A DNA stretch of 64,000 nucleotides from Eledone cirrhosa (Eukaryota): assembly GCA_964016885.1 (NCBI GenBank), contig OZ024756.1, forward strand, positions 15,686,001-15,750,000. Reading direction: 5' to 3'. Below the pieces are notes generated by a model. The model worked only from the letters and a program-made list of their open reading frames with translations. It had not been told where the DNA came from and did not search any database. Position 1 is the stretch's first letter; each line of letters begins with the position of its first letter. Position numbers and translations under genes: made by a program. Positions 12,876 through 61,047 of this stretch are shown here, piece after piece.

Positions 12876-13216
12876 AATGTTTGAAAATCTAAACACTTTT
12901 TGATTGCCATTTACATTGTATGTATATATATATGTATATGTATATTATATGTATATATATATATACAAGGGATAACAAAATATCGTTATAGGTAATCCAG
13001 ATGATCTGATTAAGCTAACATCGTATTTAAAATTGAGTGGCACTGCTTCAAGTGTTCAGCAATTTTTAGACAACTTAATCAGTGAAACAATTGTCAGACT
13101 GTAAATAAATCCCTTTTTTGTACTGTTGACCATGTTATTCTTCACGTTTTCAATTATATATATATATATTTTTATATATTAATCAATATTTGTTCTATTT
13201 GGTTTTCTGTTGCCAG

Positions 13217-14130: not shown

Positions 14131-14136
14131 AGAAGA

Positions 14137-17236: not shown

Positions 17237-17293
17237 TTATATATATATATATAAAGAATGAAGAGTAACATGGTTGGCTGTACAATAAGGGGC

Positions 17294-17336
<43 letters not shown>

Positions 17337-27990: not shown

Positions 27991-28021
<31 letters not shown>

Positions 28022-28971: not shown

Positions 28972-29159
28972 TCAACTGAGATCGCAGCGTCTATAAAACA
29001 ATAAATAGGGGATTCGGTTGACGACAAACTTGAGGACGTGGGCTGGAGATACATTTCTTACAACTCCATCATCGTACAGGATCCAGTTGTTGATGCCACT
29101 GTGGTAGACACATGCTGTATAATGTCCTCCTGTTGCATTCTTGCCGTGATGAAAGATAA
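28972..29159 (-). CDS. USP10: USP10 exon 15 (His box, stop)
   Basis: VIFHHGKNATGGHYTA...WILYDD...YLLFYRRCDLS-TGA; summed CDS 2868 nt is divisible by 3. Confidence 0.95.
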
Positions 29160-29399
29160 CTGAAAGAAAAAGAAGGAGATAGAGATAAACATTCTTGCCA
29201 TGGTGAATGATAACTAAAAGATGAAGAAAGAGAGACAAATATTTTTCTCTATCTGTACAAGTTAACGTTATCGCTTTATGTCAGTTTTTCCATCCTTGCA
29301 CAGATTGGATGAAACCAGGAGCTTATCCCAGTTTTCACGGGTATTAACTATCCATGCTAGTGTGGAAGATGGATGTTAAATGATGATGATTAACTTTTA

Positions 29400-29770
29400 A
29401 TCCTAAACCACATGGGGAATCACCACTGCTTCTATATTACAAAGCTGGGTTATTTCATCCATCATAATTTTCCATAAGAACACCAAATTAATAATGACAA
29501 AGTTAGTTATATTTCACTAAATCCCTCATTTTCAAAATTATTTGAAAATCGTAGGCAGTGTCTTTCAATAGAAATATGGTAATTAAAGGATTAAAGTGTT
29601 CATTTCATCTAAAAACATCCCATTGTAATTTTACATAAAAACATTTGGTAAGTTATGTTCCAAACACCAACTTAATGAGAAAGTTAGTTATATACTACTA
29701 AATCCCTCCAAATTATTGATTATTTTCAAAATTATTTAGGCAGTGTCTTTTATAAGAAATGTAAACAGTT
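29400..29770. mobile_element. AT-rich dispersed repeat family 2 (probable TTAA MITE), representative copies
   Basis: Shared core GTTATGTTCCAAACACCAG and end AAATATGGTAATGAAAGGGTTA; copies near 1-90, 23760-23940, 25550-25770, 26230-26560, 34290-34420, 40995-41190, 51305-51500, 62100-62430, 63520-63740. Confidence 0.6.
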
Positions 29771-30009
29771 AAAAATAACTAAAAATAATTGATACTGTAT
29801 TGTATTAAGATAATGAAGTATGATAATCTGCATCTGGGGGAAATAAAAATGTTTATTTTTTAACCTTTTTATTATTGTTAAAAGCAATGTGGAAAAAGAA
29901 AAAACCTTTGACTTATTTCAAATAGAATTTACAACACAAAGCACTGAATAGCATGTAAAAATATGTAAAAACAGTAGATAATTCAGAGAGAGAGGGGGGA
30001 AATAGTTAC

Positions 30010-30072
30010 CAGCAAAAAGTTTATAATTTCTTTGAGCCAATGGGATTCTGATGCGAACTGGAGACAGCAGTT
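30010..30072 (-). CDS. USP10: USP10 exon 14
   Basis: ELLSPVRIRIPLAQRNYKLFA; tttag| and |gtaact; 63 nt, phase 1/1. Confidence 0.92.
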
Positions 30073-30429
30073 CTAAAACGAAATAATTAGAATGATTAAT
30101 ACATGTACAATTGACAGAATAGACTGGTCATACACTTGACGTTTCAAGATCAGAATCCCACGAGAGGATCATATTAAACATCACATGGGGAGATTGAAAA
30201 ACTGCTGAATGGATCCGAGAAGGAACAAAAGTTTGCAACATCCTAAGAATTATTAGCAAAGCAAAATGGAAGTGGGCATGATACATTACCAGAATGACTA
30301 ACAACAGATGGACCACCAGCATCACCTTCTGGACCTCTCTCCTTCTCTCGAAGAAATCAACTATGTTCAAACTCTGCTGTCCTGCCACATCAATTTCACC
30401 AGGAGTTACAGACCCAAACATCCATGCAT

Positions 30430-31964
30430 ACAGATAGAGGAGCTTCTATTGCCTTTACTAATATCAAGTTCTATTGGGCAAGATTTAGGAGTTTATTACC
30501 TTTACTAATACCAAGTTCTATTGGGCAAGATAGAGGAGTTTATTACCTTTACTAATACCAAGTTCTATTGGGCAAGATAGAGGAGTTTATTACCTTTACT
30601 AATATCAAGTTCTATTGGGCAAGATAGAGGAGTTTATTACCTTTACTAATATCAAGTTCTATTGGGCAAGATAGAGGAGTTTATTACCTTTACTAATATC
30701 AAGTTCTATTGGGCAAGATAGAGGAGTTTATTACCTTTACTAATATCAAGTTCTATTGGGCAAGATAGAGGAGTTTATTACCTTTACTAATAGCAAGTCC
30801 TATTGGGCAAGATAGAGGAGCTTCTATTGCCTTTACTAATACCAAGTTCTATTGGGCAAGATAGAGGAGTTTATTACCTTTACTAATACCAAGTTCTATT
30901 GGGCAAGATAGAGGAGTTTATTACCTTTACTAATACCAAGTTCTATTGGGCAAGATAGAGGAGTTTATTACCTTTACTAATACCAAGTTCTATTGGGCAA
31001 GATAGAGGAGTTTATTACCTTTACTAATACCAAGTTCTATTGGGCAAGATAGAGGAGTTTATTACCTTTACTAATACCAAGTTCTATTGGGCAAGATAGA
31101 GGAGTTTATTACCTTTACTAATACCAAGTTCTATTGGGCAAGATAGAGGAGTTTATTACCTTTACTAATACCAAGTTCTATTGGGCAAGATAGAGGAGTT
31201 TATTACCTTTACTAATACCAAGTTCTATTGGGCAAGATAGAGGAGTTTATTACCTTTACTAATACCAAGTTCTATTGGGCAAGATAGAGGAGTTTATTAC
31301 CTTTACTAATACCAAGTTCTATTGGGCAAGATAGAGGAGTTTATTACCTTTACTAATACCAAGTTCTATTGGGCAAGATAGAGGAGTTTATTACCTTTAC
31401 TAATATCAAGTTCTATTGGGCAAGATAGAGGAGTTTATTACCTTTACTAATACCAAGTTCTATTGGGCAAGATAGAGGAGTTTATTACCTTTACTAATAC
31501 CAAGTTCTATTGGGCAAGATAGAGGAGTTTATTACCTTTACTAATACCAAGTTCTGTTGGGCAAGATAGAGGAGTTTATTACCTTTACTAATATCAAGTT
31601 CTATTGGGCAAGATAGAGGAGTTTATTACCTTTACTAATATCAAGTTCTATTGGGCAAGATAGAGGAGTTTATTACCTTTACTAATACCAAGTTCTATTT
31701 GGCAAGATAGAGGAGTTTATTACCTTTACTAATATCAAGTTCTATTGGGCAAGATACAGGAGTTTATTACCTTTACTAATACCAAGTTCTATTGGGCAAG
31801 ATAGAGAAGTTTATTACCTTTACTAATACCAAGTTCTATTGGGCAAGATAGAGAAGTTTATTACCTTTACTAATACCAAGTTCTATTGGGCAAGATACAG
31901 GAGTTTATTACCTTTACTAATACCAAGTTCTATTGGGCAAGATAGAGGTGCCTGTATTACCTTT
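30430..31964. repeat. 47-bp minisatellite, about 32 copies, derived from the USP10 exon 13 donor region
   Basis: Unit TTATTACCTTTACTAATACCAAGTTCTATTGGGCAAGATAGAGGAGT aligns to 32452-32510. Confidence 0.95.
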
Positions 31965-32450
31965 AAATAAATTATCAACGGTCTGGAAATCTAAGCTTCT
32001 ATTAAATTTGAAATGTGATATCTTTCAAGCGGTTGTGCAGTCAGTTCCTTTATATGGATGTATAACGTGGACTCTAACAATGTGTCTTGAAAAGAAAGTT
32101 GATGGAACCTATACAAGAATGCTTCAAGCTACTCTGGACATCTCCTGGAAACAACACCCTACAAAAGATCTTCTCTATGGAAATTTACCACCAATATCAC
32201 ACGTCATTAGAGAAAGAAGAACAAGATTCACCAGACATTGCTGGAGAGCAATGGATGAGATCATCAACGTCCTTCTTTAGGAACCAAAACATGGGTACAC
32301 AAATGTTGGCAAACCATATTGAACCTACATAAAGCAACTGTGCAAGGATTCCGAGTGTACCAGAGAAGACCTACCACAAGCAATGGCAGACCGAACAGAC
32401 TGGAGACGAGTCATGAAGATTCATGCAATAAGCACACCTGGATGATGATG
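31965..32450 (+). mobile_element. RTE-like LINE 3' fragment in USP10 intron 13
   Basis: LYGCITWTLT..LEKKVDGTYTRML...ISWKQH; ends in a (GAT)n tail. Confidence 0.8.
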
Positions 32451-32482
32451 ACTATTGGATAAGATAGAGGTGTTTCTATTAC

Positions 32483-32627
32483 CTTTATTTATATCAAGTT
32501 CTATTGGGTAATCTATCTTCTTCAAGACTTTCTGAATTCCACCATTCTTATCATAGATGAAACATTTAAAATGTAGAATAAGGACTGGTGGCAATTCCTC
32601 AAGGGTTAATTTTTTCGTTATTTCCAC
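32483..32627 (-). CDS. USP10: USP10 exon 13
   Basis: VEITKKLTLEELPPVLILHFKCFIYDKNGGIQKVLKKIDYPIELDINK; ttcag| and |gtaata. Confidence 0.95.
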
Positions 32628-33564
32628 CTGAAATGGGAGAAAAATAGATTTAATATTAACATAAAATAACTGATCTTTGTACAGTACATACACACATATA
32701 TATATGTCTAACCCATGCTAGCGTGGAAAACGGACGTTAAACGAAGATGATGATGATGATGTATGTATGTATACACACACAATCATCATCGTTTAACATC
32801 CATTTCCAATGCTAGCATGGTCATTTTTATCATCATCATTTCATTTCACGTCCGCTTTTCCCTGCTTGCAAGGGTGGGACAGGAACTGATTCTGGCTTGA
32901 TTTCTACAGCTGGATGCCCTTCCTAACACCAACCTCATTTACAGTGAGTGCTGGGTGCTTTTTTGCCATGGCGCCTCCTCGACCACTTTGCAGTCCCTAT
33001 CATCTCATTTCTACAGCTGAGAAATGTGCAATGGAGCAATGTGAAATAAAGCGTCTTGCTCAAGGAAACAACACATCACCCGGTCTGAGAATTGAACTCA
33101 CAACCTTTCAATTGCAAGGCCAATGCTCTAACCACTAAGCCATGTGCCTCCATTTTATATGAATTCAAATATGTATATATTTGTATATATGTGTATGTGT
33201 GTCATTAGTTTTGTTTTGTTATTTCTGTTTACCATTTATAACAGATCATCATTATCATTGTTTAACATCTAACTTCCACGCTAATATGGGTTGGATGGGT
33301 TTGTCCCACCTGGGGCGAGATTGGTCGGGAGACCGTGTTTTGCTCGTACATAGCTGTTCCTGGCAGGTTTTCTACGGCTAGATGCCCTTCCTAACACCAA
33401 CCACATTTACAGTGTGGACTGGGAGCCTTTTTACCGTGTCTCCTACACGACCACTTTACAGTGTGGACTGGGTGCTTTTTGTCGTGTCACCTACACGACC
33501 ATTTTACAGTGGACGGAAGTGGGAGGATGGAGTAGGGAGTGGGGTGAGGTGTATATTGGGTTAA

Positions 33565-33980
33565 GAGGCACCTACTGACTGTAGGTTTAAGTTCATATAC
33601 ACGGGAAGACAGGTTTTCTGTATAACTGCATAGCGCCAAAGATCTCGATCCAGTGACCTTGTCTTAGAGAGGTGTAAGCGAGCATGGCCAGTTTTTATCA
33701 CCTCGTCCCAGATTTTTCTTGGTCTACCCACTCCGTAGCTTCCATTAATTTTGATTGCTCTGCACTTTTTTATACAGCTGTTGTTCTTGATATGCATCAC
33801 ATGTCCATACCAACGCAATCTTCTCTCCATTTTTTACCTCTTATGCTTAGTCTCTCTCTCAATTCGTTTATGCTTTGCCATTCGCGCACATTACTATTAC
33901 ACATCCATCGGAGCATGTAAGCTTTGTTCCTTTCTAATCTACGCAAGTTTTCTGCACACAACGCCCAGGTCTCACTACTA
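33565..33980 (-). mobile_element. 3' fragment of the same RTE-like LINE family
   Basis: SETWALCAE..RRLERN, ERRLRWYGHV, GRPRKIWD; similar to 15880-16300. Confidence 0.85.
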
Positions 33981-34517
33981 TGTATGTATATATATATATA
34001 TATATATATATGATGTGTTGTTTCCTTGAGCAAGACACTTTATTTCACATTGCTCCAGTTTGATCAGCTGTAGAAATGAGATGATAGGGACTGGGGTCCA
34101 TATCATTCCACTGCAAAGTGGTCGTGGAGGTGCCACGGCAAAAAAGCACCCAGCACTCACTGCAAATGAGGTTGGTGTTAGGAAGGGCATCCAGCTGTAG
34201 AAATCAAGCCAGCATCAGTTCCCGTCCCACCCTTGCAAGCAGGGAAAAAGCAGACGTAAAATGAAATGATGATGATGATGATATATAATAGCCTTCCATT
34301 ATAATTTTATATAAGAAACACCAGCTTAATAACAAGAAACTTATATGAGTAAATCCCTCCAAATTATTAATTACTTTCAAAATGATTTTCATTACAAATA
34401 TGGTAATGAAAGGGTTACATGAAAACATTAAGGGTGTAATAAAAAGACATTGGTAAGTTCTGGTATAATCAAACAGGTTTTGTGTAATAACTATTTAGAT
34501 AGAAATCTGTTACCTAC

Positions 34518-34610
34518 CTCTGTGTTAGTCTTAGAACATGTATAACCATGAACAGCTTCTCTGCTAACAAGACCATCAAGAGCATCCTTCACATTCCACA
34601 CTTTATCAGA
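34518..34610 (-). CDS. USP10: USP10 exon 12
   Basis: SDKVWNVKDALDGLVSREAVHGYTCSKTNTE; tgcag| and |gtaggt. Confidence 0.93.
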
Positions 34611-34659
34611 CTGCAAAATAAATATTATTATTATTATTATTGCGCATCATTACTGCTTT

Positions 34660-35550
34660 ACCGAGCACGGCTCTGTGTACCTTGGGTATGAGCAGTGCAG
34701 TTTTTGCTGATGTTTCTATTGTATTGACAATACTTTTCATAATGTGTGCAGTGCCTAGTAGTGCTATCTTTTGTATGTTGTATATATTTGTAAGTCCTGG
34801 GGTACTCTATATAATATATATACAGTACCTAGTATTGCTATCTTTTGTATGTTGTATATATTTGTAAGTCCTGGGGTACTCTATATAATATATATACAGT
34901 ACCTAGTAGTGCTATCTTTTGTATGTTGTATATATTTGTAAGTCCTGGGGTACTCTATATAATATATATACAGTACCTAGTATTGCTATCTTTTGTATGG
35001 TGTATATATTTGTAAGTCCTGGGGTACTCTATATAATATATATACAGTACCTAGTATTGCTATCTTTTGTATGGTGTATATATTTGTAAGTCCTGGGGTA
35101 CTCTATATAATATATATACAGTACCTAGTATTGCTATCTTTTGTATGGTGTATATATTTGTAAGTCCTGGGGTACTCTTATATAATATATATACAGTACC
35201 TAGTATTGCTATCTTTTGTATGTTGTATATATTTGTAAGTCCTGGGGTTTTGGTTAAATATCAGTCTGTGTGTTTTTTTTTTTTATCATTCCTAGAGCAC
35301 CTATTATTATAGGTATTGTTTCTGTCTTCATCATCCCCATTCGAGTTATTTCTATCTCTAGATCTTTATATTTGGAGAGTTTCCTCTATTTCCTTGGAAG
35401 ATATATTGTCGTCTGTGGGGATTGATACAGCCATTAGAAGATATTGTTTTCTTTGTGGTCTTTGACTATAATATCTGGTCAGTTGGCCTTGATCTCTGTG
35501 TATGTATTGGTATATCCCAGAGAAAGATTGCTTTGTCATTCTCTGACACA
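34660..35550 (-). mobile_element. R4/Dong-like LINE REL-endonuclease C-terminal remnant
   Basis: Minus-strand peptides PDIIVKD, VSIPTDDNISSKEIE, KDLEIEITR, IPIIIGALG, IQKIALLGTAHI; ends at a (TAA)n tail. Confidence 0.65.
34752..35248. repeat. 74-bp tandem repeat, about 6.7 copies, inside the LINE remnant
   Basis: GTACCTAG recurs at 34825, 34899, 34973 and onward. Confidence 0.92.
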
Positions 35551-35875
35551 TTTATTATTATTATTATTAAATTTACATATGATATTCAAGTAACATTTTC
35601 AATATTCTTTGATGAGAAAATTTTATGTTTTATTTTTGTTAGATAAAATTTAACTGAGGGTTTAAAATAAAACAAGACTGTGTGTGTGTGTGTGTGTGTG
35701 TGTGTTTGTGTGTGTACTTGTGTGAATATATGTGTGTATGTGTGTCTAACTGTAATAAAAAGTCAATCAATTTTTACCTGCAGATAAACCAATTTGTATG
35801 TCAGGCAGCAGTGTATACATACATGTGTGTGTGTGTGTGTGCACGTGTAACTATAATAAGGCAATCAATATTTAC

Positions 35876-36001
35876 CTGTATATCTAACTGTAGTGTAAAG
35901 AATGGCTGAAGGGTGGCCGATTCTTTAGAAGCCACCTGGTACAAAGCTGACCTCATCTGGCCACCAAATATATCAGAAATACAACTCCTGGCAAAATTGG
36001 C
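35876..36001 (-). CDS. USP10: USP10 exon 11
   Basis: [11 protein letters not shown]...[17 protein letters not shown]; tttag| and |gtaaat. Confidence 0.95.
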
Positions 36002-36029
36002 CTAAACACAAATAAAATGGAATAGAACG

Positions 36030-36291
36030 AAATATAGATTAGGTGACACTGGACAGACATATTGATGAAATATAGAAGAGGTGACACTGGACAATGTAAA
36101 ATAGGATGTGGTGGTGGACAGACATATTGATGAAATATAGATTAGGTGACACTGGACAGACATATTGATGAAATATAGATTAGGTGACACTGGACAGATA
36201 TATTGATGAAATATAGATTAGGTGACACTGGACAGACATATTGATGAAATATAGATTAGGTGACACTGGACAGACATATTGATGAAATATA
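36030..36291. repeat. 38-bp tandem repeat, about 7 copies
   Basis: Unit GACATATTGATGAAATATAGATTAGGTGACACTGGACA. Confidence 0.9.
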
Positions 36292-37248
36292 TTCACATTC
36301 TAAATTGCTGACCTTTTACCTGAATTAGAAACCATTATTATTTTTATTGAGGGTGACAGATTGGCTGTACCGAATGGGCATCACAAAGGGACGTACCTTA
36401 ACTATACTGCGGCGCATGTTGTCTGATGCTCTACCAACACTAGCAATCCACAGCCCTAGTAATTGTTTCGGCATTTGGCACAAGGCCAGCAATTCAAAGG
36501 GAAAGTCGACCATGTCGACCCCCGGTGCATTACTGGTACTTTATCAACCCCACAAGGACGAAAGGCAAAGCTAATCTCGATGGAATTTGGACTCTGAACA
36601 TAAAGAGACATAACTATGCTGCAAAGCATGTTGTCCAACGCTCTACCGATACTGCCAATCTACCGTCCTATAATAAAAGCCAATGTGTGTTTATTTATAA
36701 ACATGTCCATCACTTACTGAAAGCGAGATGACTGAGGAAGGAAGGGGTGGTAACAAACTATAGAAAACTGTCACCAGGGTCCTAAGATGAGCTACACTTG
36801 TGTGAATGTGTGTGTAGCGAATTGGCTATTATTATTGTGTGAGTGTTTGTTTATGTATATATGGAGGTTAGAGCATTGGGCTTGCAATCGAAAGGTTGTG
36901 AGTTCAATTCTCAGACCGGGTGATGTGTTGTTTCCTTGAGCAAGACACTTTATTTCACATTGTTCCAGTTACTCAGCTGTAGAAATGAGATGATAGGGAT
37001 TGGGGTGCCTATCATTCCACTGCAAAGTGGTCGTGGAGGTGCCACGGCAAAAAAGCACCCAGCACTCACTGTAAATGAGGTTGGTGTTAGGAAGGGCATC
37101 CAGCTGTAGAAATCAAGCCAGAATCAGTTCCCGTCCCACCCTTGCAAGCAGGGAAAAGCGGACGTATGATGATGATGATGATGATGATACTCGCACACCA
37201 AGATATTATCTTGATTATCTATGTTAGTTGTAATAATAATAATAATAC

Positions 37249-37364
37249 CGTTCTTGTGAATACAGTTTTGTTTTTTGGTCCAACTTGCTCCCAGTCATCA
37301 TAGTTATTGGCGTTCTCATCAGGAAGAAAACCATTTTCTTTTAATTTTGAATTGTGGTTTTCAT
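37249..37364 (-). CDS. USP10: USP10 exon 10
   Basis: DDWEQVGPKNKTVFTRT, a USP10-typical motif; ttcag| and |gtatta. Confidence 0.92.
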
Positions 37365-38051
37365 CTGAAATATAGAAAAGAGATTATTTTTTTTTTTTTT
37401 GTTTGTTCAATCTAACGATATGGCAATTTTATCATAGGGTCCAGAATACAAATAGCAGTTTTATCATAGGGTCCAGGATACAAATTATCTACAGTGGACC
37501 CTTTCTTAATGAATATTTTTGCATTAATTTGCTAACAAATAAAATCATGGCAATAAACAATTTCTATACAAGAATAACAAAAACCTTAAGGTCAGAAAAG
37601 GTCACTTGGGCCGCTTCATAGAAATTAATTTTGTTGACTGCCGTGTGCATTTTACACAGCTGCAGTTACTGTGCTGGGTCTTTTTTCAGTAAAATGACTA
37701 TTTTTTTTAAAAACAAACATTTATTAACCCTTTAATGTTCAAACCAGCCAGAATTCTCTACCTCTTTCTGTTGAAACTGGCTGTAACTGGTCACTCAAAC
37801 TGATGTTAAGGTATTGTTCTCAAAATCTCATAGATTCAATATCATGTGAGATAATTATGCGAGGTAAAGCCTTTACCATGAAAATATAATAATATATATA
37901 GAGTAATGTGAATACTAAAGGGTTAACAATACATATCTGAATGATTGACAAATGTCACATCAATAAACTAGTAACTCCATCTAGCTTTGGAGTTATGAAC
38001 TGTTGGAAACAATTTCATAACTTTGAAGTTATGAACTTTTGGAAACAATTT

Positions 38052-38218
38052 CATACATGTTAGGACGAGTTATCTTATCTGTGGCACTGGAATGCATACG
38101 TGTTAGGACAAGTTATCTTTTCTGTGGCACTGGAATGCATACATGTTAGGACAAGTTATCTTTTCTGTGGAACTGGAATGCATACATGTTAAGACAAGTT
38201 ATCTCGTCTGATGCACTG
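38052..38218. repeat. 43-bp tandem repeat, about 4 copies
   Basis: Unit CATACATGTTAGGACAAGTTATCTTTTCTGTGGCACTGGAATG. Confidence 0.88.
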
Positions 38219-38731
38219 AAGAGGTTAAGTAGTGTTTTACTTGGCTAGCTTTTATATTCATTTAGCTTCACTTTACAGGTGGTGTTTGTCCTGTAAGCAT
38301 TTATCTTGTACTCTTTGATAATTTGATGACTGTCACTGATATAGGTAACAAGTAAGACAAAATTAGATGTAAAGGGAGGCAGTTTTGGGAAGAGTGGTGT
38401 TTAACCCTTTAGCATTTACATTAATCTATATATACTATTATATTTTTGTGTTAGAGACTTTATCTTACATAATTATCTCACAATATTGAATCTACAAGAT
38501 TTTGATATTATTTATTTTGAGAACAATACCTTAACATAAGTATTGGCCAGTTTGAACATAAAGAGGTGAAAGAATTCTGGCCAGATATGGCTGGTTTATA
38601 TGTGAAATGGTTAATTAATTGAAATAGGGTGTATTTCATTAGAAATATAATCATGAAATAGTTAAATTAAATGCCTGTTTCAGTAGTAGAGGAGGCAGAT
38701 ATAATTACTTGATTGGATAAATGATAATTAC

Positions 38732-38840
38732 CTTGTTGATTAGGATTGTTATTGGCAACATTTACAACAGCAAGCATTTCATCATGAAGATTGCTCAGTA
38801 CAAAAGTCAAAAACTCTTCAGCATCCTCTTGCTTCCCATG
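38732..38840 (-). CDS. USP10: USP10 exon 9 (QEDAEEF box)
   Basis: HGKQEDAEEFLTFVLSNLHDEM; tgtag| and |gtaatt. Confidence 0.93.
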
Positions 38841-39857
38841 CTACAAGATAATAATAATAATAATAATAATGGTTTCTTTATTGGCCACAAGGGCTAACAT
38901 GAAGAAAAACATTAGACGGCACAGAACGATACAAAGTGGGTTTTGGCCGTGTAGAAAGGTTACAAAAAGACAGAAACGTGTAAAACAAATTAAAATTCAA
39001 ACAACAAAAATTCCCCAATCAGGATGAAGCCTCCGAGGGTCACTCGTGGTGAAAACCACGGCCACCATGACCACCAGAGCAAGCGCCCTCTCTCACTTTT
39101 TCCACTCCTCAGTCTACAGGCGCACACTCAGAGCGGGCACGTTGAATGGGTAATTTTTGAATAGATACATTGCATAGAAATAGATTTTTTTGAATGACGC
39201 CATTTTTCATTTTTATTTTGGCGGGACGTATTTGCTAAATGCAAAGTTCAAATTGGAATTTAGCCCTAAAGGGCTAAATACTGATTAATTTTGACCACTT
39301 CAAAAGAAGCAGGGTGTGTTTAAACGCAAAACAATATGATTTTTACATAAGTTCGCAATAAAAACTGTTCAAAAATCACAAACTTACGGGGACAAAATTT
39401 CCTACAACTATTATAATAATAATAATAATGTTTTCTTTATTAACCACAAGGGTTGATATAAAATATACCATTAAGGACAGTACAGGATGGTACAAATGGG
39501 CATTTCTGTGTGTAAAGAAAAACAACAGAGGAAGTGAAATTAAACAATGGAAAATTCCCCAAATAGGGGATAGACTTCTGAGAGTCACTTGTGGAGAAAG
39601 CCCACTAGAAGCCGCAGTGACAATAATAATAATGGTTTCTAATTTAGGCACAAGGCCAGCAATTTGAGGGGGGGGGGGTTGATTAAATTTACCTCGGAGA
39701 GTTACTGGTACTTTATTTTATCAACTCCGTAAGGATGAAAGGCAAAGCTAACTTCTGTGGGATTTGAACTCAGAATGTCAAAGGCCGTAACTATGTGTGC
39801 AAAGCGTGTCTGAAGTTCTACCGATTCTTCATGAGTGCAGATCTGCAGCAGTTAAGA

Positions 39858-40641
39858 ATAGGGTGTATAACTAAAACCTAGAGAGAAGTGGGTGTATAAC
39901 TAAAAGCTAGAGTGAAGTGGGTGTATAACTAAAACCTAAAGTGAAGTGGGTGTATAACTAACAGCTACAGTGAAGTGGGTGTATAACTAAAAGCTAGAGT
40001 GAAGTGGGTGTATAACTAAAAGCTAGAGTGAAGTGGGTGTATAACTAAAAGCTAGAGTGAAGTGGGTGTATAATTATTAACAGCTACAGTGAAGTGGGTG
40101 TATAATTATTAACAGCTACAGTGAAGTGGGTGTATAACTAACAGCTACAGTGAAGTGGGTGTATAATTATTAACAGCTACAGTGAAGTGGGTGTATAATT
40201 ATTAACAGCTACAGTGAAGTGGGTGTATAATTATTAACAGCTACAGTGAAGTGGGTGTATAACTAACAGCTACAGTGAAGTGGGTGTATAACTAACAGCT
40301 ACAGTGAAGTGGGTGTATAACTAACAGTTACAGTGAAGTGGGTGTATAACTAACAGTTACAGTGAAGTGGGTGTATAACTAACAGTTACAGTGAAGTGGG
40401 TGTATAACTATTAACAGCTACAATGAAGTGGGTGTATAACTAACAGCCACAGTGAAGTGGGTGTATAAGTATTAACAGCTACAGTGAAGTGGGTGTATAA
40501 CTAACAGCTACAGTGAAGTGGGTGTATAAGTATTAACAGCTACAGTGAAGTGGGTGTATAACTAATAACAGCTATAGTGAAGTGTGTGTATAATTATTAA
40601 CAGCTACAGTGAAATGGGTGTATAACTAAGATGGGTGTATA
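39858..40641. repeat. 29-32-bp minisatellite, about 26 copies
   Basis: Unit GTGAAGTGGGTGTATAA(TTA)CTAACAGCTACA with length variants; abuts the exon 8 donor. Confidence 0.93.
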
Positions 40642-40646
40642 GTCAC

Positions 40647-40753
40647 CTTGAAAGGCACGGCAGCTTCTGTTAAGTGGACCATATTATACACACATGATGG
40701 TTCAAATGGAAGACCTGGGATTAATTCTGTGGTAGGTGATCGTTTCTTAGAAG
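40647..40753 (-). CDS. USP10: USP10 exon 8
   Basis: SKKRSPTTELIPGLPFEPSCVYNMV...FK; ttcag| and |gtgact. Confidence 0.9.
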
Positions 40754-43119
40754 CTGAAAAGATAAAATAATTGAAATGCATTAAAAACCCTTTCGTTACC
40801 ATATTCCTAACGAAAAAGACACTGCCTATGATTTAACCCTTTAGCATTTACACTATTCTATATTTACTATTATATCTCACATATCGAATCTATGAGACTT
40901 TGATAACAATACCTTAACATCAGTATGAGTGGCCAGTTACAGCTGGTTTGAACAGAAAGGCAAGAAAATTATGGCTGGATATGGCCGGTTTAAATAACCC
41001 TTTCGTTACCATATTTCTAACAAAAAAGACACTGCCTATGATTTAAAATAATGTTTTTAAATAATCAAGAATTTGGAAGGATTTAGTAATATAAATCAAT
41101 AATCTAGTGTATGGAACATAACTTAAACATCCTTACGTAAAATTATGATGAAAGGATGGAACTTTTAGAAAAAAATGTAAATACTAAACTTGCCAATGAA
41201 TCTTATTTTTTTAAATAAGAATTTAACCCTTTAGCATTTAAACTGGGTGAATCTGGCCAGAATTCTCTCATCTCTTTCAGTTCAAACTAGCTGAAACCAG
41301 CTACTTATACTTATGTTAAGGTATTGTTCTCAAAATAAATAATATCAAAATCTCATAGATTCGATACTATGTGAGATAATCTTATATAATAAAGTTGTAG
41401 TTCCTGCCTGTTTGTTTGTTCACAAACTCCTCCTATGGTTTTGGAGATAGACCCCCATAACCATATATATTCTGAAACTACATTGCCCAGGGTACTTGGA
41501 TAAGTATATTTCATTTTAATCAAAGGGTTCCCTAGGGGCACAAACCCCTGCTTGCCGCCGCTGAAAATGTTTTCCCTTCGATTTATATGAAATTTAAGCT
41601 ATAGGTAAACAACAAGATATGATGCCTATTCAGCAAATTTCAATAATATTAAGACACCCTAATAGGGGTTAAACCCACTATAGTGAAAATGCTGGAAGCC
41701 CATAACTTGAGTATTGGAACCTCTATTATCACTGGGTTTTTCTATTAATTAAACGTAAATCAACAAAAAAAAGCACCTCTCTTTTATCGTAAAATTTGGC
41801 TAATTTAGACATTTTATCTATGGCAAAACATCACTAGAATTATGACAACAAAAATTATTAGTTAATGCCTCTACTTTTTTAACATTTTCCTTTTATTTTT
41901 TCTCCATAAATTATATCACTGATTTAAAATCAATCATCATTTTCTCTTAAAAAAAGTGTGAAACGCAGCAAGGCGTGGGTAATTCGGATAGTTATGCAAG
42001 ATAAACCCTTTACAGCAAAAATACATGTGACAATCCAACCATTGCCAGCATGGGACATGGACCTGAAAATGACATCCAATGGTGACGATGAATATAGAGT
42101 ATGGGTAAAGACATCTTTTAGGCACAAACGACCATGGGATTTGCACCAAGACTGGGCCCCGTTGTTTGTGGAAGACCAGCTGTTGCCCAAGCATACCAGA
42201 CACCCCCTCTCCACACCACTGATGTTGTCCAAAGGAAAGGCAAAGACCGATACAGCTTGGCACCCGTGACTCACTTCTACAGCTGAGTAAATGGAGTAAC
42301 GTGAAATAAAGTGTCTTTACTCAAGGACAAAACCCACTGCCCAGTCCAGGAATTGAACTCACACCTGACAATTATAAGCCCAGCACTCTAAGCCATGAAT
42401 ATCATCATTTCCATTTAGCATCAATCCCTCCATGGGTCATCCATGCTGGGAAGCAAGGTTGGCCATGTCGCACCTTATTCCATCGAGGACGATAAATTTA
42501 GCAGGGTATGTCACAGCTGGATGCCCTTCCTGACACCAACCACATTTACAGTGTGAGACTGGATGGTTCCGTCATGAGGGACAACAGGCCAGTTGGCCAC
42601 ACCCAAAACCTCTCAAACGGAGCCATAGTTTAGGAGCCCGGCACTGATACAAGGAGCCTGACCCATCTCACAGCATAGCCAACGTTTTGGGGGCCCGGTT
42701 CTAGATAAGGAGGGACAGGTGAAGGGCCACAGTTTGGGAGCCTGGTGTTGGATATCATTATCATCAGCATTTTACATCCACTTTTCCCTGCTTGCAAGGG
42801 TGGGATGGAAACTGATTCTGGCTTGATTTCTACAGCTGGATGCCCTTCCTAACACCAACCTCATTTACAGTGAGTGCTGGGTGCTTTTTTGCCGTGGCAC
42901 CTCCACAACCACTTTGCAGTGGAATGATATGGACCCCAGTCCCTATCATCTCATTTCTACAGCTGAGTAAACTGGAGCAATGTGAAATAAAGTGTCTTGC
43001 TCAAGGAAACAACGCATCACCCGGTCTGAGAATTGAACTCACAACCTTTCGATTGCAAGCCCAATGCTCTAACCACTAAGCCATGTGATATATATATATA
43101 TATATATATTTATATTTAC

Positions 43120-43160
43120 CTGAATTTGGCATAGCACTGAACTCACTCATGAACTGAAAC
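43120..43160 (-). CDS. USP10: USP10 exon 7
   Basis: FQFMSEFSAMPNS; tgcag| and |gtaaat; phases consistent. Confidence 0.88.
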
Positions 43161-44122
43161 CTGCAAAACAATGAAATGAGATTTTCAGGAATATAAAATG
43201 TAAAGTTATTTTAACATCCTGAAATAATTTATCTGAACATTTACAATAAACTAAAATAAACACTGTAATGTGATGCAGTCAATACTGTTTTCTACTTTTC
43301 AAAAATGTTTTGCTAATATGGTTTCATAAAGATATTTTACAAGAATTTAGTTTTTAAAAAAAATCATAGGAGCCAATCACCAGATCAGATCAGAGAGTAT
43401 ACTGGAGCAATGTGAAATAAAGTGTTTTGCTCAAAAACACAACACACGACCCAGTCCAGGAATTGAACCCACAACACTATGATCATAAGTCCAACACCTT
43501 TACCCAGGGCCTATGAGAAGGGTGTCCAGCCGGTACTTTGTTCCGGGGCCCAAGAGCTAAGAAGACCGCACAGCAACCATGGAACATCCATTTTGAGAAA
43601 AATCTTGTAACGTCTTGCAAAAATTTCTCTGAGGCCTTGCCCTTACCACTAGGCCACTTGCCTCCACAATTTTGATAAAAAGTGATTGAAATTGAAGTGC
43701 AGAGAGCTGGAACAAGTAATGTAAATGCTAAAGGGTTAAAGTGTTTACATTTATCTAAAACTCCAGATATGACAAAGTTATATCACTAAATCCCTCCAAA
43801 TTTTCACCTGGAAAAATTATTTGTCTTTCATATGGTAACAAAAGAACAGAGTTAACCCTTACTCTATATTTCCTATTGTATTTTCACAGTAAACACTGTA
43901 TTTTATATATAATTATCTCACATATCAAATCTACAAGATTTTGATATTTATTTTGAGAACAATACTTAACATAAGTTTGAGCAACTGGTTTGAACAGAAA
44001 GAGGTGAGAGATTTCTGGTCAGATGTGGCTGGTTTAAATACTAAAGGGTTAAGGAACAAAAGAATAAAGTGAAAACTGTTTAACTCCAATTCAAGTAGAT
44101 ATGGCAGAAATGAAATACTTAC

Positions 44123-44232
44123 ATGGCATCTAGAACTGGTGTTGAGCTGGGACCACGTTGTTTAATTGACACAAGTGGCAAGTTTGTTATTAGGTGGTAA
44201 AAGGGTGGACAAGACAAGAGAGCCTGTAAGGT
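44123..44232 (-). CDS. USP10: USP10 exon 6
   Basis: TLQALLSCPPFYHLI...STPVLDAM; cag| acceptor, |gtaagt donor. Confidence 0.92.
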
Positions 44233-44936
44233 CTGATTGCATGGTTAAGGTAAAGAAAAACCAAACACACCTGGTAGATATTGTACAGAAGCTTGTCATA
44301 TAATAAAGCTGTTTGTACAAAAAAAAAAAGCCCAACACATTTCATAGATAGAAATTAACAGAAACCTGTCATATACACATATATATATATATATACACAC
44401 ACAGTATATAGTAGAGTAATAGTTGACCCCCTGTTTTTAGCCAAAAATCTGGAATTTTCCATAGACCTCATAAAAGACAACCATAGTGTTTCACGGATAA
44501 CTGGTCAACATTTGTAGATCAAGGTATCATCCAATACATAGAATTAACACTTTAGAAAAATTGTCGTGAATCTAAGGTAAATTTATATTATTGTAAATAC
44601 ATGTCTGAAACTAAAAATTTACCCAAAACGTGTACCATACATTATAGCAGAATGCTTGCTGCTTGTAGTAAAACACCATATAATAGCGAGCACTACACAT
44701 CTGTTGATGAGTGCTACATCCTCCTCATTACTAAAATGTATGCACAATATGTGCTGCAAGCCTGTAACCTTTATATTTTCCTCATTTCCACTTCTGCTAC
44801 TGATACAGTACTTTGGATTCTAGCTTGAATTTCAGGCCCCCTGAAAAGTAGTATCCATGTAACTGTCGACCTCATAAATTTAACCTTAAAAAATGGTCTT
44901 AAAAATTTGATTTTTACTCAAGTTTATACAGGATAA

Positions 44937-45031
<95 letters not shown>

Positions 45032-46404
45032 GTTCAAGGAGACAACAAACAGAGGTGCAAAAGTCTTATTAGTTTCACGCTTTATATTGGAAAGCGGAAA
45101 GACAGTTCAATGTGTCGGGCTTAGGCCCTTCTTCAGAAGTACAAAATAAGGTTCAGTAAAGACAACAAAAAATTGAAAATGAAGATTGAAAACAAGACAA
45201 GTGTTAGGTAGTCTTGGTAACGAGTTGGAAGTGGAGTGTGTGTGTATTAGTGTCGTTATATGTTTGAGTCTAAGTGTATGTTTAAACCTGTGTAAGTTTT
45301 AAAGGTATATTGTGTAAAGTAACAAAGATAGTGAGTGCAGGTGTATATCCATGTGTTAGTGGTAGTGGACGTGTATGTGTGTGTAAGTTTGAATGTGTGT
45401 AGTGTATATGTACATTGAAGTAATTTTGTGTGTGTGTGTGTGTGTATAAAGTATGTGACAGTGTTGTGTATGTCCAAGAGATGTGTGGATTTGTATGTGT
45501 GATGTATGATAAATTTTAACGTGTTTCTCATCATTTCATTTTACGTCTGCTTTTTCCCTGCTTGCAAGGGTGGGACGGGAACTGATTCTGGCTTGATTTC
45601 TACAGCTGGATGCCCTTCCTAACACCAACCTCATTTACAGTGAGTGCTGAGTGCTTTTTTGCCGTGGCACCTCCACGACCACTTTGCAGTGGAATGATAT
45701 AGACCCCAGTCCCTATCATCTCATTTCTACAGCTGAGAAATGTGCAATGGAGCAATGTGAAATAAAGTGTCTTGCTCAAGGAAACAACACATCACCCGGT
45801 CTGAGAATTGAACTCACAACCTTTCAATTGCAAGGCCAATGCTCTAACCACTAAGCCATGTGCCTCCATTTTATATGAATTCAAATATGTATATATTTGT
45901 ATATATGTGTCATTAGTTTTGTTTTGTTATTTCTGTTTACCATTTACATACATACAGATCATCATCATCATTGTTTAACATCTAACTTCCACGCTAATAT
46001 GGGTTGGATGGGTTTGTCCCACCTGGGGCGAGATTGGTCGGGAGACCGTGTTTTGCTCGTACATAGCTGTTCCTGGCAGGTTTTTTTATGTCCTTGAGCA
46101 AGACACTATATATAAATGTATATATCATTTTACTGTTTTCAGTCATTAGCCTGAAATCATGCTGGGGCAGCACCATAAAGAAGAGATTTGGCAAATCATG
46201 TCAAACTCTAGTACTTATTTTTATTGATCCTTTTTTGTCAAACCACTAAGTTATGGGACACACATGTAAACACAGAACTGAAACAATCTTGCTCAAGGAC
46301 ACAGCCACTGCAGAAATCCAACTCACAACCTTATGATTGTGAGTCCAAACCACCACGCCACTAAACACTAAACTTTTCAATGATAACTATAGTAGAAAGG
46401 ATAC
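44233..46404 (-). other. U12-type (minor spliceosome) GT-AG intron of USP10
   Basis: Donor GTATCCTTT; branch site TACCTTAAC about 12 nt before CAG; no long pyrimidine tract between branch and AG. Confidence 0.9.
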
Positions 46405-46496
46405 AGCATTGATATAACACCAGTTGCCTTTGTTGTTGAGTGCCCGGGGTTGTAGGGATACAGATCGGTAGACCAAATTCACATCTTTTAGAGCAG
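46405..46496 (-). CDS. USP10: USP10 exon 5 (Cys box)
   Basis: [19 protein letters not shown] with the catalytic Cys; donor GTATCCTTT. Confidence 0.95.
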
Positions 46497-48300
46497 CTAA
46501 ATTTAAAAAGAAACAAAAACAATTAACATTATACCACCGGAATAGATATTTCAAGGGTCAATTTCTCCTGTACTAGCAAGGGTTAGTTTTGTCAGCCCTG
46601 TAGCAAGCTTCTCCATTTTGCCCTAACCTCTACAGCATAAGCCTCGCCCCATTGCTTTCATTTCCCCCTCTATCATCCTTAGCTATATCTTTCTAGGTCT
46701 TTTCCTCCCTCTACTTTCCTGCCCTTTTACCCTCCAGTAACTTTCATCCTTCCTCAACACATGACCCAGCCATCTCATTCTTTTTCTCTTCACTTGATTA
46801 GCATCAACATCTGTAATTCATCATTTTCCTTTCAATCAGCGATACTTTGCTCATTCACCAAACTATTCCATTTCCATTCTTTCCAGTCTTCTCTGCTGCT
46901 CCATGTTAACCCTTTAGTGTTCAAACCGCCCGAAAACACCCACACTAAAAAATTGTTCTAAAAATAAACAAACCATCATCAAAATCTCGTCAATTCGAGA
47001 CTGCTGCGAGATTAGGCCTTTACCGCGAAAATTAACACTTAATATGGGGAAACAACTTGAAACAACAAGTGTTTTTTTTTACTTTGAAAGTGCAACAAAT
47101 TTTATTTAATTGTATCAACATGGCTTACGAAAGTAGCGATACCGACTTTGAAGTTTTTACACACGACATTCAGAATAAACAAGAAACAAACGATAATATT
47201 AGTGATTTATCTTCAAATGAATCTGATGTTTATATTTCTGAAATTTCGTCCGACGGTGATTATTGTTTTGAAAGTGAAAATGAAGGAGACTCGAGGGCGC
47301 CATTGAAAATATTTCAGCAACATGGTTGAAAAATACCACACCAATATATGTTCCTGATTTTATTCAAATTACTGGTCCACAACACATGTTAGCTCACGAT
47401 GCTAAAGCACTGGATTATTTCTTTTTGTTTTTACCACAAACTTTCTTCGAAGTTAAAATTCTTCTTCGAAGAATAAAATGGCAGAAGAGATTAATCAATA
47501 TGCCCAACAAACAGATTTCAAATCGAGGAAAACCCGATCTGTTATGGCGACCGACAGATGCTGCAGAAATGTGAGCATTTTTTACCGTAAATATTACATT
47601 CGGTATAAAGCAATTTCCAAGACTGGAATTATTGGAACACTGATATAAGGTTTAGTGATTCTTATATATCAAGTATTATGCTGAAAACAACGTATTTAAA
47701 ATTAAACCAGTATTTGCACCTGGTTGATACTTCAAATGCTCCTATTAATTAATTTCACCTGCCCATAAAAATCAAATTTGACCAAAAAAATCAGGTAAAA
47801 TTATATAATTGTAAATTATTGATATTTAAACATCTACTGACAAAATTTCAAGTCTGCACATAGAAAATTAAGAAAATTATAAACAAATAAAATTGATAAC
47901 CCTCTTGAGTACGATTAACTGAAAATAATTGTTTCTACTTTAGGCACAAGGCCAACAATTACCCAGTGCATTACTGGTACTTTATTTTATCGACCCTGTA
48001 AGGATGAAAGGCAAAGTAAACCTCGGCGGGATTTGAACTCAGACCGTAAAGGGATTAACTGAAAATAATGCGAATGCTAAAGGGTTAATACCCATGTCTC
48101 ACTTCCATAAATCATGGTACTTCTCACACATGCAGCCTACATGTTTCCCTTCAGTTTCAATGACACTCCCCTCCACAGTTTGCAGAACTTCTATGCCTAT
48201 CTCACTGAAGCTAACATCACAGAATCCAATCCATGTCTCCTAGATAATAAAATACTTTCACAGAAGAGGTGAAAATAACAGAAAAACCTAAAACACTTGC
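46497..48300 (-). other. GC-AG intron of USP10
   Basis: AG|GCAAGT donor gives phase 1 and joins KIG-A-ALKD in register with the homologous protein; the nearest GT is out of phase. Confidence 0.8.
46906..48088 (+). mobile_element. Internally deleted piggyBac element with transposase N-terminal remnant
   Basis: TTAA-CCCTTTAG...CTAAAGGG-TTAA; frameshifted PGBD-like peptides (acidic N-terminus, ALDYFFLFLP, WRPTDAAEM, YLHLVD) at about 47120-47740. Confidence 0.8.
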
Positions 48301-49818
48301 CTCCAATCTTCATCGCCATGGGGTCGTCATCAATGGGAACACGTTTTTGAAGCTGTGGTGTCGGAGTTGAATCTCGTTCTGGGCTTGGTTTCGGCCCTGT
48401 ACCTATTGCACCTCTGTCGACAGATGCTGGAGAGGATGCACGTTTAGAAAGAGTCAGCTCATCGTTCCTGTCCGATGTTCCACAGTATACAACAATACTC
48501 TTTAATGTAGTCTCAGTGTTTCTGAACAGACCAGCCCAAGACTTCACCTTGGGAAGTTGTGGAGTTGGAGAAATATCTTTGTCTTTAGCCTGGCTAACAA
48601 ATGTCTCCACACTCTCTGTTGAGCTCACACTGTCTGCATCTTTTGTCACATCAACAGTCGGTGTCCGTGACTCACATTCTAAACTATTCGCTACATCTTC
48701 CCCAGCAACTGTTGAACTCTCAACAATAGGCTCGCTATTTTCAGTAGATATTGTTGTCGTTCCCTTCACAGCACCAGCAGCAGACACAGTTACAACACTA
48801 CTTTCGTTCACCAAACAACTATCTACTACATCAACCGGCTCGTCAACCTGGTTGCTAAGTTTGTGTGATTGGTCATCACTGGCCTGGTTCTGCAGCTTGC
48901 TGCCAACGTTGTTGTCATGGTGGTTGTGGTGGTCTGAAGATGAAGTCGTCGTTGGGAGTGGTTTATCTTTAGATTCACTGCTGCTCAGTGAGTTTGCAGT
49001 ATCAGATGACAACCCCTGCCCAGTCTCGTTACCGTTGCGTCTTTGATCAGGAAAGGTTATTACATAATGGTCATTCTGTAGCTTCAACTGTAAGTTGTCA
49101 TTAGGAAGAATGCCGTTGCCAGAGATTTCAGAGTCAAAGAAGCTTATTGTTTCCAACATTTGGGTCTCGGCTTCTATAGATTTTTCTAGATTTCCAGAAG
49201 GCACATTATCACAGTCTGGCTTGGCCTGACCACTTTTCTGCATCGTGTTAATACCAGTCGGCTCAACTTTATCAAGTCCACAGCAATTCTTCAGTTGCAC
49301 TTTCTTGTGGGCCTGCCTAACATTCTTGGCGTCCCCAGATTTTGTAACCCCTACCTCAGAAGTTCTCACTTCCGGTACGTGGTTCTCCTCACACAATTTG
49401 CTATTTTCTTTCACTGCAGCAGTTGGTGATGCAGTGGGGAGCACACTTGCTTTGGGCACCGCAACCACTGGGGGTGGCAATACAGCGTCGCCGCTGGCAA
49501 CTGCCACTGGTGATGTGTCGGAAGCAGGGGCTATGAAGTCATGGTTCACCACAGCCACGTTGATGGGGATCATACCAGGAGGGGGCCCAACCACTGCAGC
49601 TGCTCTGTTTATTGGAGGTTGAGGAAGGTTAACTGCTGTCACTGCTGCTGCAGGGGGTGGTGTAAACACTAGAGGTACCAGTGGAGATTGGAAAATAGCC
49701 CCTCCATGAGGGATGTGCGGAACAGGTCCTGTGCGTGGGTAAAGAGTAGCGACAGGAACTACAGATGGAGGTAGTGGAGGTGGACTACCATTGTAGGCTT
49801 CATAAGGAACCACATCAT
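48301..49818 (-). CDS. USP10: USP10 exon 4 (large Pro/Ser/Thr-rich disordered region)
   Basis: Inside the 548-aa ORF; acceptor ttccag|; contains KSWAGLF (USP10 KSWASLF-like) and DPMAMKIG; ends at GC donor AG|gcaagt. Confidence 0.9.
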
Positions 49819-50869
49819 CTGGAAAGATAAACACACAAAACATTAATTCTTAACAACTTGGAGTGATTTTTATCTATTTATCTATCTTCAGCCTTGGAAA
49901 GTTTGTTGTTGGGCATAGGAATTTAGCAGAAAATACATGAATATCATCTAAAAAGTATCTTTACAAGTGGACAGCTTGAGAAACTTTGCAATATTAGACT
50001 AAAGATTTTCATTTTTAATGTGATGCAGTCGTCCAACCATCTTACTCAGGATCTACCGTTGGGTCTGCTGTCGGTTGGTTTTGTTCATAAAATCTGTCCA
50101 GCAATTCTTTTCTGCTTGGCGACCAAGCCAGATTAATTGGAGAGAGTTGCTTCCAACAGGACCTGCTGGAAAGCTCTTTTGAAGACTGCTGTCACGACAC
50201 TCCCAGGAATAAGTGGGCAAATAAGAAGAATGTGATGCAGTCAGTTTTTTCTCAAGATGTTGCATAGGCGAAGCAGTTAACTGACTCTTAACACCCTGTA
50301 ATGATTTAGCAGGAAATTTCTAAAAATAGCATTATTAATTCAGATGTTTATAATAAACGCTATGTAATCCGCAAGCCATGTCACTCGCCGTGATGAACCT
50401 GCTGGTAGATTGCTCCTCTGGACTCCAAATATAAAGAGACAAGTTGGCCAGCAATATATCACCTTGAATTTAATCATTGAGATGGACACAGTCCTCAAAG
50501 GAACAGATCTGTGTGCTGTAATGGTCGACCAAGGACTCTGAAGCTCGAACTATGTCAGTGCTCCACCATGGCCTCAAGGCATTGGATAAGACACAACAAG
50601 AGTAATAATGTTTATTATAGTATCATTATGTAATAGCCTTGTGTTTATTAGCAAACAAATCCTTGTGAAAATTTGCAGTATTGGGACTAAAAACTTGAAT
50701 TTCTAATAGGATGTAGTCACAGTACTTTTTTTATACTTTTCTAGAACATCTCTAGTGTAACTTCATGTGGTACAGGACGTTAAGAGTCACCAAAGGTTTT
50801 GGTCTATTATATATAACTTTGCAAGCAAATTAAATTATCAAACAAGCCATAATAATTAATAGAACTTAC

Positions 50870-50903
50870 CAGCTAGAAGAGATCCATCTTTATCCCATGG
50901 AAA
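50870..50903 (-). CDS. USP10: USP10 exon 3
   Basis: atttcag|TTTCCATGG...G|gtaag; 34 nt, FPWDKDGSLLA; bridges phase 0 to phase 1. Confidence 0.75.
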
Positions 50904-52057
50904 CTGAAATAGAAAGAAAAAATCTTAACCCCTACCATTACTATATTTCAAAGAAAGACACTACCTATGTTTTAACCCCTTCCATTACCATATTTCAAAT
51001 AAAAGACACTACCTATGTCTTTAACCCTTTCATTTCCATATTTCTGATGAAAGACACTGCCCGTCTTAACCCCTTTTATTACTATATTTCAAATGAAAAA
51101 CTATGCCTTAACCCTTTAGCATTTAAATTGGCTGTATCCGGCCGGAATTCTCTCACCTCTTTCTGTTCAAACCAGCCACAACTGGCCACTCATACTGATG
51201 TTAAGGTATTGTTCTCAAAATAAATATCAAAATCTCATAGATTCGATATTATGTGAAAATGGAAATACAATAGTAAATATAGAGTAATGTAAAGGTTAAA
51301 GAGTTAAACTCATTTTGTTACCATATTTCTGATGAAAGACATTACCTCTTAAGATTTCCAAATCCTTTTGAAAATAATCAAACAGCTGGAGTCAGTAATA
51401 TAACTTTCTGATTATTAAGCAGGTGTTTGGAACATAACTTAACCAAAGTTCTTATCTAAAATCCTTCCATTATAGTTTTATGTAACTATAAACACTTTAA
51501 TTACCATGATTTCTCATGAAATATGCTGTATTGGCATTAATTAATGAAGAATTTGAAGGGTTTTACTCTAAGTAATTATTTCATTATTACAATAGTAGTT
51601 TTAAAAATTATAAAGGTTCTTATATCAAGTTATAATGTTGGCAAATTGGTAGGGTCGTTAGAATGTTAGATAAAAAGCTTTGTGGTATTTGTTTCGTATC
51701 TCTGCTATCTGAGTTCAAATCACATTGAGGTCAACTTTACCTTTCACCCTTTTGTGGTCGATAAAAAAAAAAGCACCTGTTTAGTACTGGGGTTAATTCT
51801 TCCTCTATATCACTTTCTCACTTCCTTTGGAAGTAATATGCTGTACTTATAGCTAGAGAGAAGATGGGCTCTGCCAGGTTTTAAATGCACCCCTACGACT
51901 CCATCGGGTGTTACCATACCATATCGAGTTTATATTAGATTTTAACTTAAATAAGAACCCTTTTAAAATGTATGGTTCTGTTTCATAGAATCAAGGGAAG
52001 GTTTTTGGGTAGGGTGGTGTCAAAAGGATTAATGCTTCAGAGAAACTGATGGCTTAC

Positions 52058-52165
52058 TTCTATTTTCTTCTGCCCAGATTCCACATTTGCTCCATGCAAT
52101 ATATGTTGGACCACATTCTGTTCATCTGGAGGTAAACCACTAAAGTCACCAAATGAGTAGTTCTC
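52058..52165 (-). CDS. USP10: USP10 exon 2 with FGDF G3BP-binding motif
   Basis: ttttcag|...|gtaag; 108 nt; ENYSFGDFSGLPPDEQNVVQHIL... Confidence 0.85.
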
Positions 52166-55100: not shown

Positions 55101-55572
55101 TTCTCTTGCTTACTTACATCATTCGCAATTCTTGCATCTAATACACATTGAGCATGCTGTCCCCTTCACTAATGGCATAAAATTCTCATAACGAATCTCT
55201 TATCTCTCCTCAAGTAGTTTGTATGCATAATTTTTATATATATATATAATGAAAATATATATATATATAGTAACAATAATAAATGTGAAGACTAAAACCC
55301 AAAGAGGGCTCGATAAGGATAATATATATATAAAAATATATAAAACCGTAGTTTCAGAAGATCACGTTAAGAGTGAAAGCAGTAATTCTTTGCTTAAACT
55401 TTAATCTGCTTTTTTAAAGGTCGTTTTTTTCCATGGTTATGTCAATATTTATAAAACAAATCTTGTATTTTATCTGATGAAAGTGCACCAAAAATGCCTT
55501 GGTTGTCCTTGAAATATATATAATAAAACAATTATGGTTTTATAAATATAAATAAGTTTCCATTTATTAATT

Positions 55573-55612
<40 letters not shown>

Positions 55613-59476: not shown

Positions 59477-59508
<32 letters not shown>

Positions 59509-61029: not shown

Positions 61030-61047
61030 CTGAGCAGTTTTAGCCAT
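61030..61047 (-). CDS. USP10: USP10 exon 1 (MAKTAQ)
   Basis: aaacATGG start context, CAG|gtgact donor, phase 0 matching exon 2; resembles the short vertebrate first coding exon (MALHSPQ). Confidence 0.7.

Follow-up and report, generated by a model that had tools for sequence, protein, structure and literature searches.

The tandem array in intron 13 of the Eledone cirrhosa USP10 gene is probably a minisatellite of 32 copies of the gene's own exon 13/intron 13 junction, likely to have arisen by one local tandem duplication and likely to be neutral; silence, or use at trace level, is expected of its donors and 18-nt segments. It lies in a 64,000-nt stretch of DNA (the window), to which all coordinates refer. 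The spliceosome would define exon 13 by the first donor, as in human F7, and would join it to the strong acceptor of exon 14; the unit acceptors would be too weak on their own and would need a dedicated enhancer to define 18-nt exons. Silence is favored because the human minisatellites that begin with a monomer across an exon-intron boundary (F7, CBS, 6-16, lamin B2 and PDGF) are described in the accessible part of PMC1557585 as using the authentic donor alone or also the next two. The scanning rule that selects the first donor was derived from mammalian cells, which counts to some degree against silence in a mollusc, as does the fact that 32 copies would sum small per-copy usage rates.

Table 1. 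Location of the main features of the USP10 locus within the window.
Feature	Position	Strand	Remarks
USP10 coding span	28972..61179	-	999 aa in 15 coding exons, mapped by tblastn (Octopus USP10 queries)
Coding exon 13	32483..32627	-	145 nt, ends in phase 1, ...PIELDINK
Authentic donor and first monomer	32452..32487	-	GT at 32482-32481; also the direct-repeat copy at the LINE 3' end
5'-truncated LINE fragment	31961..32451	+	runs antisense to the gene; tail of (GAT)n at 32441-32451
36-bp direct repeat, second copy	31930..31965	-	likely target-site duplication; starts the first unit after the LINE
Minisatellite	30432..31960	-	32 complete units, 30 of them 47 nt and two 49 nt long; a partial one continues into original intron
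First of 32 candidate 18-nt microexons	31912..31929	-	ELGISK
Last candidate 18-nt microexon	30453..30470	-	ELDISK, followed by a GC donor
Coding exon 14	30010..30072	-	63 nt; tblastn and frame

The USP10 gene and its junction repeat

The exons were mapped by tblastn with the USP10 proteins of O. bimaculoides, O. sinensis and O. vulgaris as queries, and when joined they form 999 codons in a single open frame with one stop at the end. The peptide of exon 13 is 96% identical to Octopus bimaculoides USP10, and the large exon 4 shows 64% identity to the Octopus USP10 proteins. A Pfam UCH match lies on exon 13, and a PDB sequence search returned other USPs only. The positions of exons 13 and 14 in the original prediction were recovered by tblastn and by the open frame, as was phase 1 at the end of exon 13; the length of that exon is corrected to 145 nt. 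Among the matches of the protein searches none was identical to exon 13 and none was a transcript-derived protein of the source species, and an Rfam scan of 28000-36000 gave no matches. Intron 4 is of the GC-AG type, and its GC donor (48300, reverse strand) is needed for the open 999-codon frame. Intron 5 (46404-44233, reverse strand) has the donor GTATCCTTT and the word TTTACCTTAAC shortly before its acceptor; by consensus, it appears to be a GT-AG intron of the minor spliceosome (U12-type). The window also contains a broken reverse-transcriptase element (15915-17298, reverse strand), with Pfam RVT_1 in two frames and a weak PHD match. On the forward strand, exon-like frames of another gene and a transposon-like ORF pair are found at 5367-6032, 7614-8216, 13183-13731 and 18631-19770, all without a Pfam match at E 0.01; the exon-like frames presumably resemble a beta-lactamase-like hydrolase.

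Tandem Repeats Finder places the array at 30432-31965 with a period of 47, 32.5 copies, 97% matches and a score of 2853, in agreement with the roughly 32 tandem copies originally counted. With unit boundaries set by splitting at each AAAG/G(T/C)AATA, the 32 whole units fall into ten types in an ordered, patchy pattern, and a partial 33rd unit (30452-30432) runs into unique intron sequence. In alignment, the unit reproduces the final ~26 nt of exon 13, which form its exonic half, and the first ~22 nt of intron 13. The best 28-nt match of unit to junction has 23 identities of 28, a value reached by none of 300 shuffles, and the origin of the unit from this junction is confirmed. The arrangement is that of F7 and CBS: the first monomer spans the exon-intron boundary and the donor is repeated in tandem in the following intron, here with a LINE lying between monomer 1 and the rest. 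The array is a further case, from an invertebrate, of the exon-intron-junction minisatellites already described from human genes. Literature searches on octopus intronic minisatellites and on microexons with tandem repeats, whose coverage mostly excludes subscription journals, returned neither this USP10 locus nor a microexon minisatellite.

Each unit holds an 18-nt segment between a YAG and the copied donor. Read in the phase-1 frame, the segment gives ELGISK in 22 of the 32 units, ELDISK in nine and GLAISK in one, so that the earlier reading of ELGISK or ELDISK applies to 31 units; the segments are frame-preserving and free of stops in all 32, as had been proposed. The acceptor is TAG in 31 units and CAG in one. 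The donor after the segment is GT in 30 units, and these donors equal the authentic one from -4 to +6, which sustains the earlier notion of about 32 decoy donors with the exception of two units that have GC. The in-frame length of the segment is unsurprising, because five of 14 USP10 exons have, within their final 27 nt, a YAG at a 3n distance from the donor, and copying such an exon end would give a segment of this kind.

Twelve tandem arrays of period at least 20 were found in USP10. Random placement of 12 arrays gives P = 0.46 for at least one that spans a junction and P = 0.18 for a donor. Two further junctions of the gene have local copies, namely the exon 11 donor (1/300 shuffles) and the exon 15 acceptor (0/300); junction copying is thus recurrent in USP10 and needs no function. 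The duplicate of the exon 11 donor, diverged and including the start of the intron (~35740-35790, reverse strand; 21/28), is located 98 nt downstream of that donor. The exon 15 copy is a 54-nt tandem (29190-29243, reverse strand; 42/54 identical) that is in frame and adjoins exon 15 (29159). Its acceptor at 29213 scores 9.4 bits versus 6.6 for the real one (leave-one-out), and its use would insert 18 residues in frame, among them a second HHGKN immediately ahead of the His box. As a candidate for alternative splicing, this acceptor copy ranks above the array. Other arrays also lie close to exons: a minisatellite at 39861-40629 (29/61 bp) starts 18 nt after the exon 8 donor, another at 36029-36291 (38 bp) precedes the exon 11 acceptor by 28 nt, and one at 34749-35248 (74 bp) lies ~140 nt before exon 12. 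Arrays at 14136-14826 and 50925-51098 apparently share the same 48-bp unit in opposite orientation, and the latter ends ~20 nt before the exon 3 acceptor.

The LINE insertion and the order of events

The LINE fragment between exon 13 and the array is dispersed and multi-copy, is truncated at its 5' end, ends in a 3' simple-repeat tail and is flanked by a direct repeat. Contigs of three DNA-like runs, all from one sample that is possibly the source of the window, were aligned to 31890-32690. Each run yielded ~150 contigs of other copies, with loose ends at 31961 and 32447; these copies extend beyond its 5' end (31961) and terminate in (GAT)n. No contig joint skips the LINE, which in one sample is uninformative on polymorphism, and joints inside the LINE belong to other copies. 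At position 32450 in the tail, one X2 contig has A for G and X1 matches the window, possibly a second allele of the same sample. A decayed ORF is found at 31921-32280. A LINE of the RTE clade had been proposed to separate exon and array; the LINE is present and its relatives end in (GAT)n, but the RTE label drew no support from the tools. The Pfam search gave DUF6451 at E 0.1, below the cut-off, and the Atlas clusters are unnamed, with DUF6451 on 27% of members; neither named a clade. The assignment to RTE is kept here as our assumption.

The direct repeat measures 36 bp with five mismatches between its copies (32452-32487 and 31930-31965), and at the 5' end of the LINE 5 nt (31961-31965) overlap with the target, placing the start at 31961 or 31966. 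Both copies share a CACC state that is absent from all other units; because this state is confined to the flanking copies, the repeat is read as a likely target-site duplication rather than as two older units, the alternative being a pre-existing unit.

The following order of events is likely. A piece of ~49 bp spanning the donor would have been duplicated in tandem, with the exon upstream left intact. The LINE would then have landed in the second monomer in antisense orientation; in the process 36 bp of target would have been copied and the repeats moved ~520 nt away from exon 13. The duplication is regarded as older than the insertion because the 36-bp repeat already contains the join of intron start and exon copy. 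Thereafter a 47-bp variant would have expanded and been homogenized by slippage or unequal exchange. The expansion or homogenization is probably younger than the LINE, because the units are 97% alike whereas the flanks differ at 5 of 36 sites (14%); the LINE copy differs from others by 10-14%, a range among the pieces listed at an identity floor of 85%. Meanwhile exon 13 would have changed from ISK to INK; the array keeps ISK, the state also present in three Octopus species. A hairpin across the real junction was considered as the cause of the duplication and is too weak (z -1.8, 12/200 shuffles).

The read-through gene models P0009 (O. vulgaris) and P0001 leave exon 13 at the same codon, and the position of intron 13 is therefore old. 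The O. vulgaris model goes on with Y-L-Y, which matches the far end of the array, instead of the Y-L-A/I-Q-stop of the repeat, a faint hint that this species may be without the junction duplication. The original prediction had likened the array to intron gain by tandem duplication of a proto-splice site. This part of it is not supported: about half of the unit is intron sequence, and since the copied piece holds intron bases and the intron is older than the repeat, the event does not amount to intron gain as PMC3443670 describes it in its available part.

Splice signals of the units and their possible use

Acceptors were scored (leave-one-out) with a matrix of only 13 sites, the U2 acceptors of USP10 itself. 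The unit acceptor reaches -4.2 bits versus 5.8-13.4 for the real ones and has 6 T in its tract versus 10-14; 513 of the 1412 intronic AGs outside the array score equal or higher. Pseudo-exons with equal or better sites elsewhere in the USP10 introns number 96 at lengths of ≤300 nt and seven at ≤27 nt, two of the seven being 3n. The unit donor (7.9 bits) is mid-range among real donors, with 7/11 U1 matches versus 5-10 (median 8) and no G at +5. The best branch-like word of the unit has a 4/5 match, a score equal to that of most real USP10 acceptors, and lies at -26 inside the donor of the previous unit. The nearest upstream AG lies at -31 (at -24 for unit 1), a distance exceeded in 12 of the 13 real acceptors. 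RNA folding of the units revealed no stable structure (z +0.9 and +1.8), and the predicted accessibility of their splice sites is like or above that of real sites. Recursive splicing at the unit AG/GT was rejected, as no pyrimidine tract precedes that AG.

Use of the units as regulated cassette microexons is unlikely. A neuronal Srrm234 eMIC isoform would bind CU/UGC and include one or several non-adjacent units, so that ELGISK or ELDISK would follow ...ELDINK where the loop leading to the His box begins. In its full form, which is likewise improbable, the junction duplication would have made a complete microexon signal in one step (CU tract, UGC, AG, 18 nt, donor), the LINE would have set it apart, expansion would have led to a bank of 32 copies, and neurons would add the residues at a repeat-tuned rate. 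From the motif, the insert site in the exon 13 loop is presumably the USP box 4-5 insertion site. Insertion between boxes 4 and 5 is described for USP domains in the accessible part of PMC12440824. The accessible parts of 10.1101/2024.09.17.613571 and 10.1101/2021.02.24.432780 describe eMIC/SRRM3-4 microexons of fly and mammals with weak 3' sites, a set-back CU tract and UGC before the AG, together with long AG exclusion zones, strong branch points (CUAAY) and a 5' splice site that is strong in mammals and weak in fly; the latter source calls the programme bilaterian-wide. The low acceptor score would be compatible with such regulation, since weak 3' sites and CU/UGC mark these microexons, and a CU-rich tract followed by UGC at -10 to -8 is indeed present in 32/32 units, each with its in-frame, stop-free 18 nt and YAG and, in 30, the real donor. 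The pair of CU tract and UGC precedes only 6 of the 1412 other intronic AGs (UGC alone, at -14 to -6, precedes 113), and the change of length from 49 to 47 nt fell outside the 18-nt segment. Against this, all copies stem from one seed: the G of UGC falls where the duplicated pieces meet, and the 32 occurrences of the motif count as a single event, which was singled out after the fact. The units have a short AG exclusion zone in place of the long one of eMIC microexons, their 4/5 branch word overlaps the upstream donor, and the donor falls short of the U1 median and of +5 G, whereas microexons need strong donors. With only seven distinct substitutions among the 47-mers and one 49-type donor lost to GC, the unit variants have no power for selection and no sign of it is readable. 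Of 141 homologues, 10 do not cover the loop; the spacing is 26-29 residues in 131/131 that do, with no doubled motif or 6-residue insert, although these are gene models of other species, which miss microexons. eMIC in cephalopods was not found in the literature searched.

Unregulated leakage is also unlikely; decoy donors or weak acceptors would here be used in a few per cent of transcripts. Use of a decoy donor alone would extend exon 13 to a stop 20 codons downstream, after ...PGVLIA, probably with nonsense-mediated decay, and the length of the array would then modify dosage slightly, as has been reported for CBS. The score of the unit donor is in the range of real donors, and downstream donors are used in CBS and 6-16 according to the available text of PMC1557585, which is in favor of some leakage. 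The same text reports that identical donors placed downstream in F7 minigenes are not in competition and become less efficient the farther away they lie, and this weighs against it, as the nearest decoy donor is 522 nt from the authentic one. That the array is an artefact of assembly is very improbable. It is true that no contig spans the array and that the three DNA-like runs represent one sample, possibly the window's own source. However, ten unit types occur in their ordered pattern, one contig runs from unit to unit, and the summed contig depth (which is not a copy number) is 80-120 at the unit edge versus 0-12 on the exon; moreover, collapse or stutter could not produce the target-site duplication and the diverged end units. 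A mostly silent, neutral repeat is thus retained as the probable reading.

Comparison with known systems

If silent, the array would be an invertebrate case of a class known from human genes. Its LINE insertion is datable, and it would serve as a natural test of first-donor selection outside mammals. Were inclusion true, it would illustrate a mutational route to the birth of neural microexons, in which junction duplication gives frame and donor and the intron start gives the tract, and copy number would be a dial on splicing. Three copied junctions among 28 in USP10 hint that such raw material may be common in octopod genomes.

Like the members of the F7/CBS class, as far as the accessible parts of the sources describe them, the USP10 array has a first monomer that spans the junction, a donor repeated in the intron, and a similar unit size and copy number: F7 IVS7 is a 37-bp VNTR and CBS intron 13 a 31-bp VNTR (PMC1557585), the latter named c.1444_1467+7(16_21) (PMC2630376), and the CBS unit, like that of USP10, holds exonic bases (~24). 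Unlike that class, the USP10 array occurs in a mollusc, is split from its exon by a LINE, and places a pyrimidine tract from the intron, and UGC, ahead of an AG from the exon, with an in-frame 18-nt candidate exon as the result. CBS 844ins68 is described in PMC2630376 (seen in part) as a single tandem copy of an intron/exon junction that is bypassed by splicing; it is closest to the exon 15 acceptor copy of USP10 and differs from the array in being one copy, on the acceptor side and not expanded. As in intron gain by tandem duplication (PMC3443670, accessible part), the USP10 duplication creates new AG/GT copies near coding sequence; that mechanism copies an exonic AGGT segment and yields a new intron position, whereas in USP10 an existing junction was copied with intron bases. 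With the eMIC/SRRM3-4 microexons, so far as the cited excerpts characterize them, the USP10 unit shares a short 3n segment, a weak 3' site, a set-back CU tract and UGC. It differs from them in the short AG exclusion zone and apparently in the strength of branch point and donor, and the USP10 units are 32 tandem copies 29 nt apart, without conservation and known from DNA alone.
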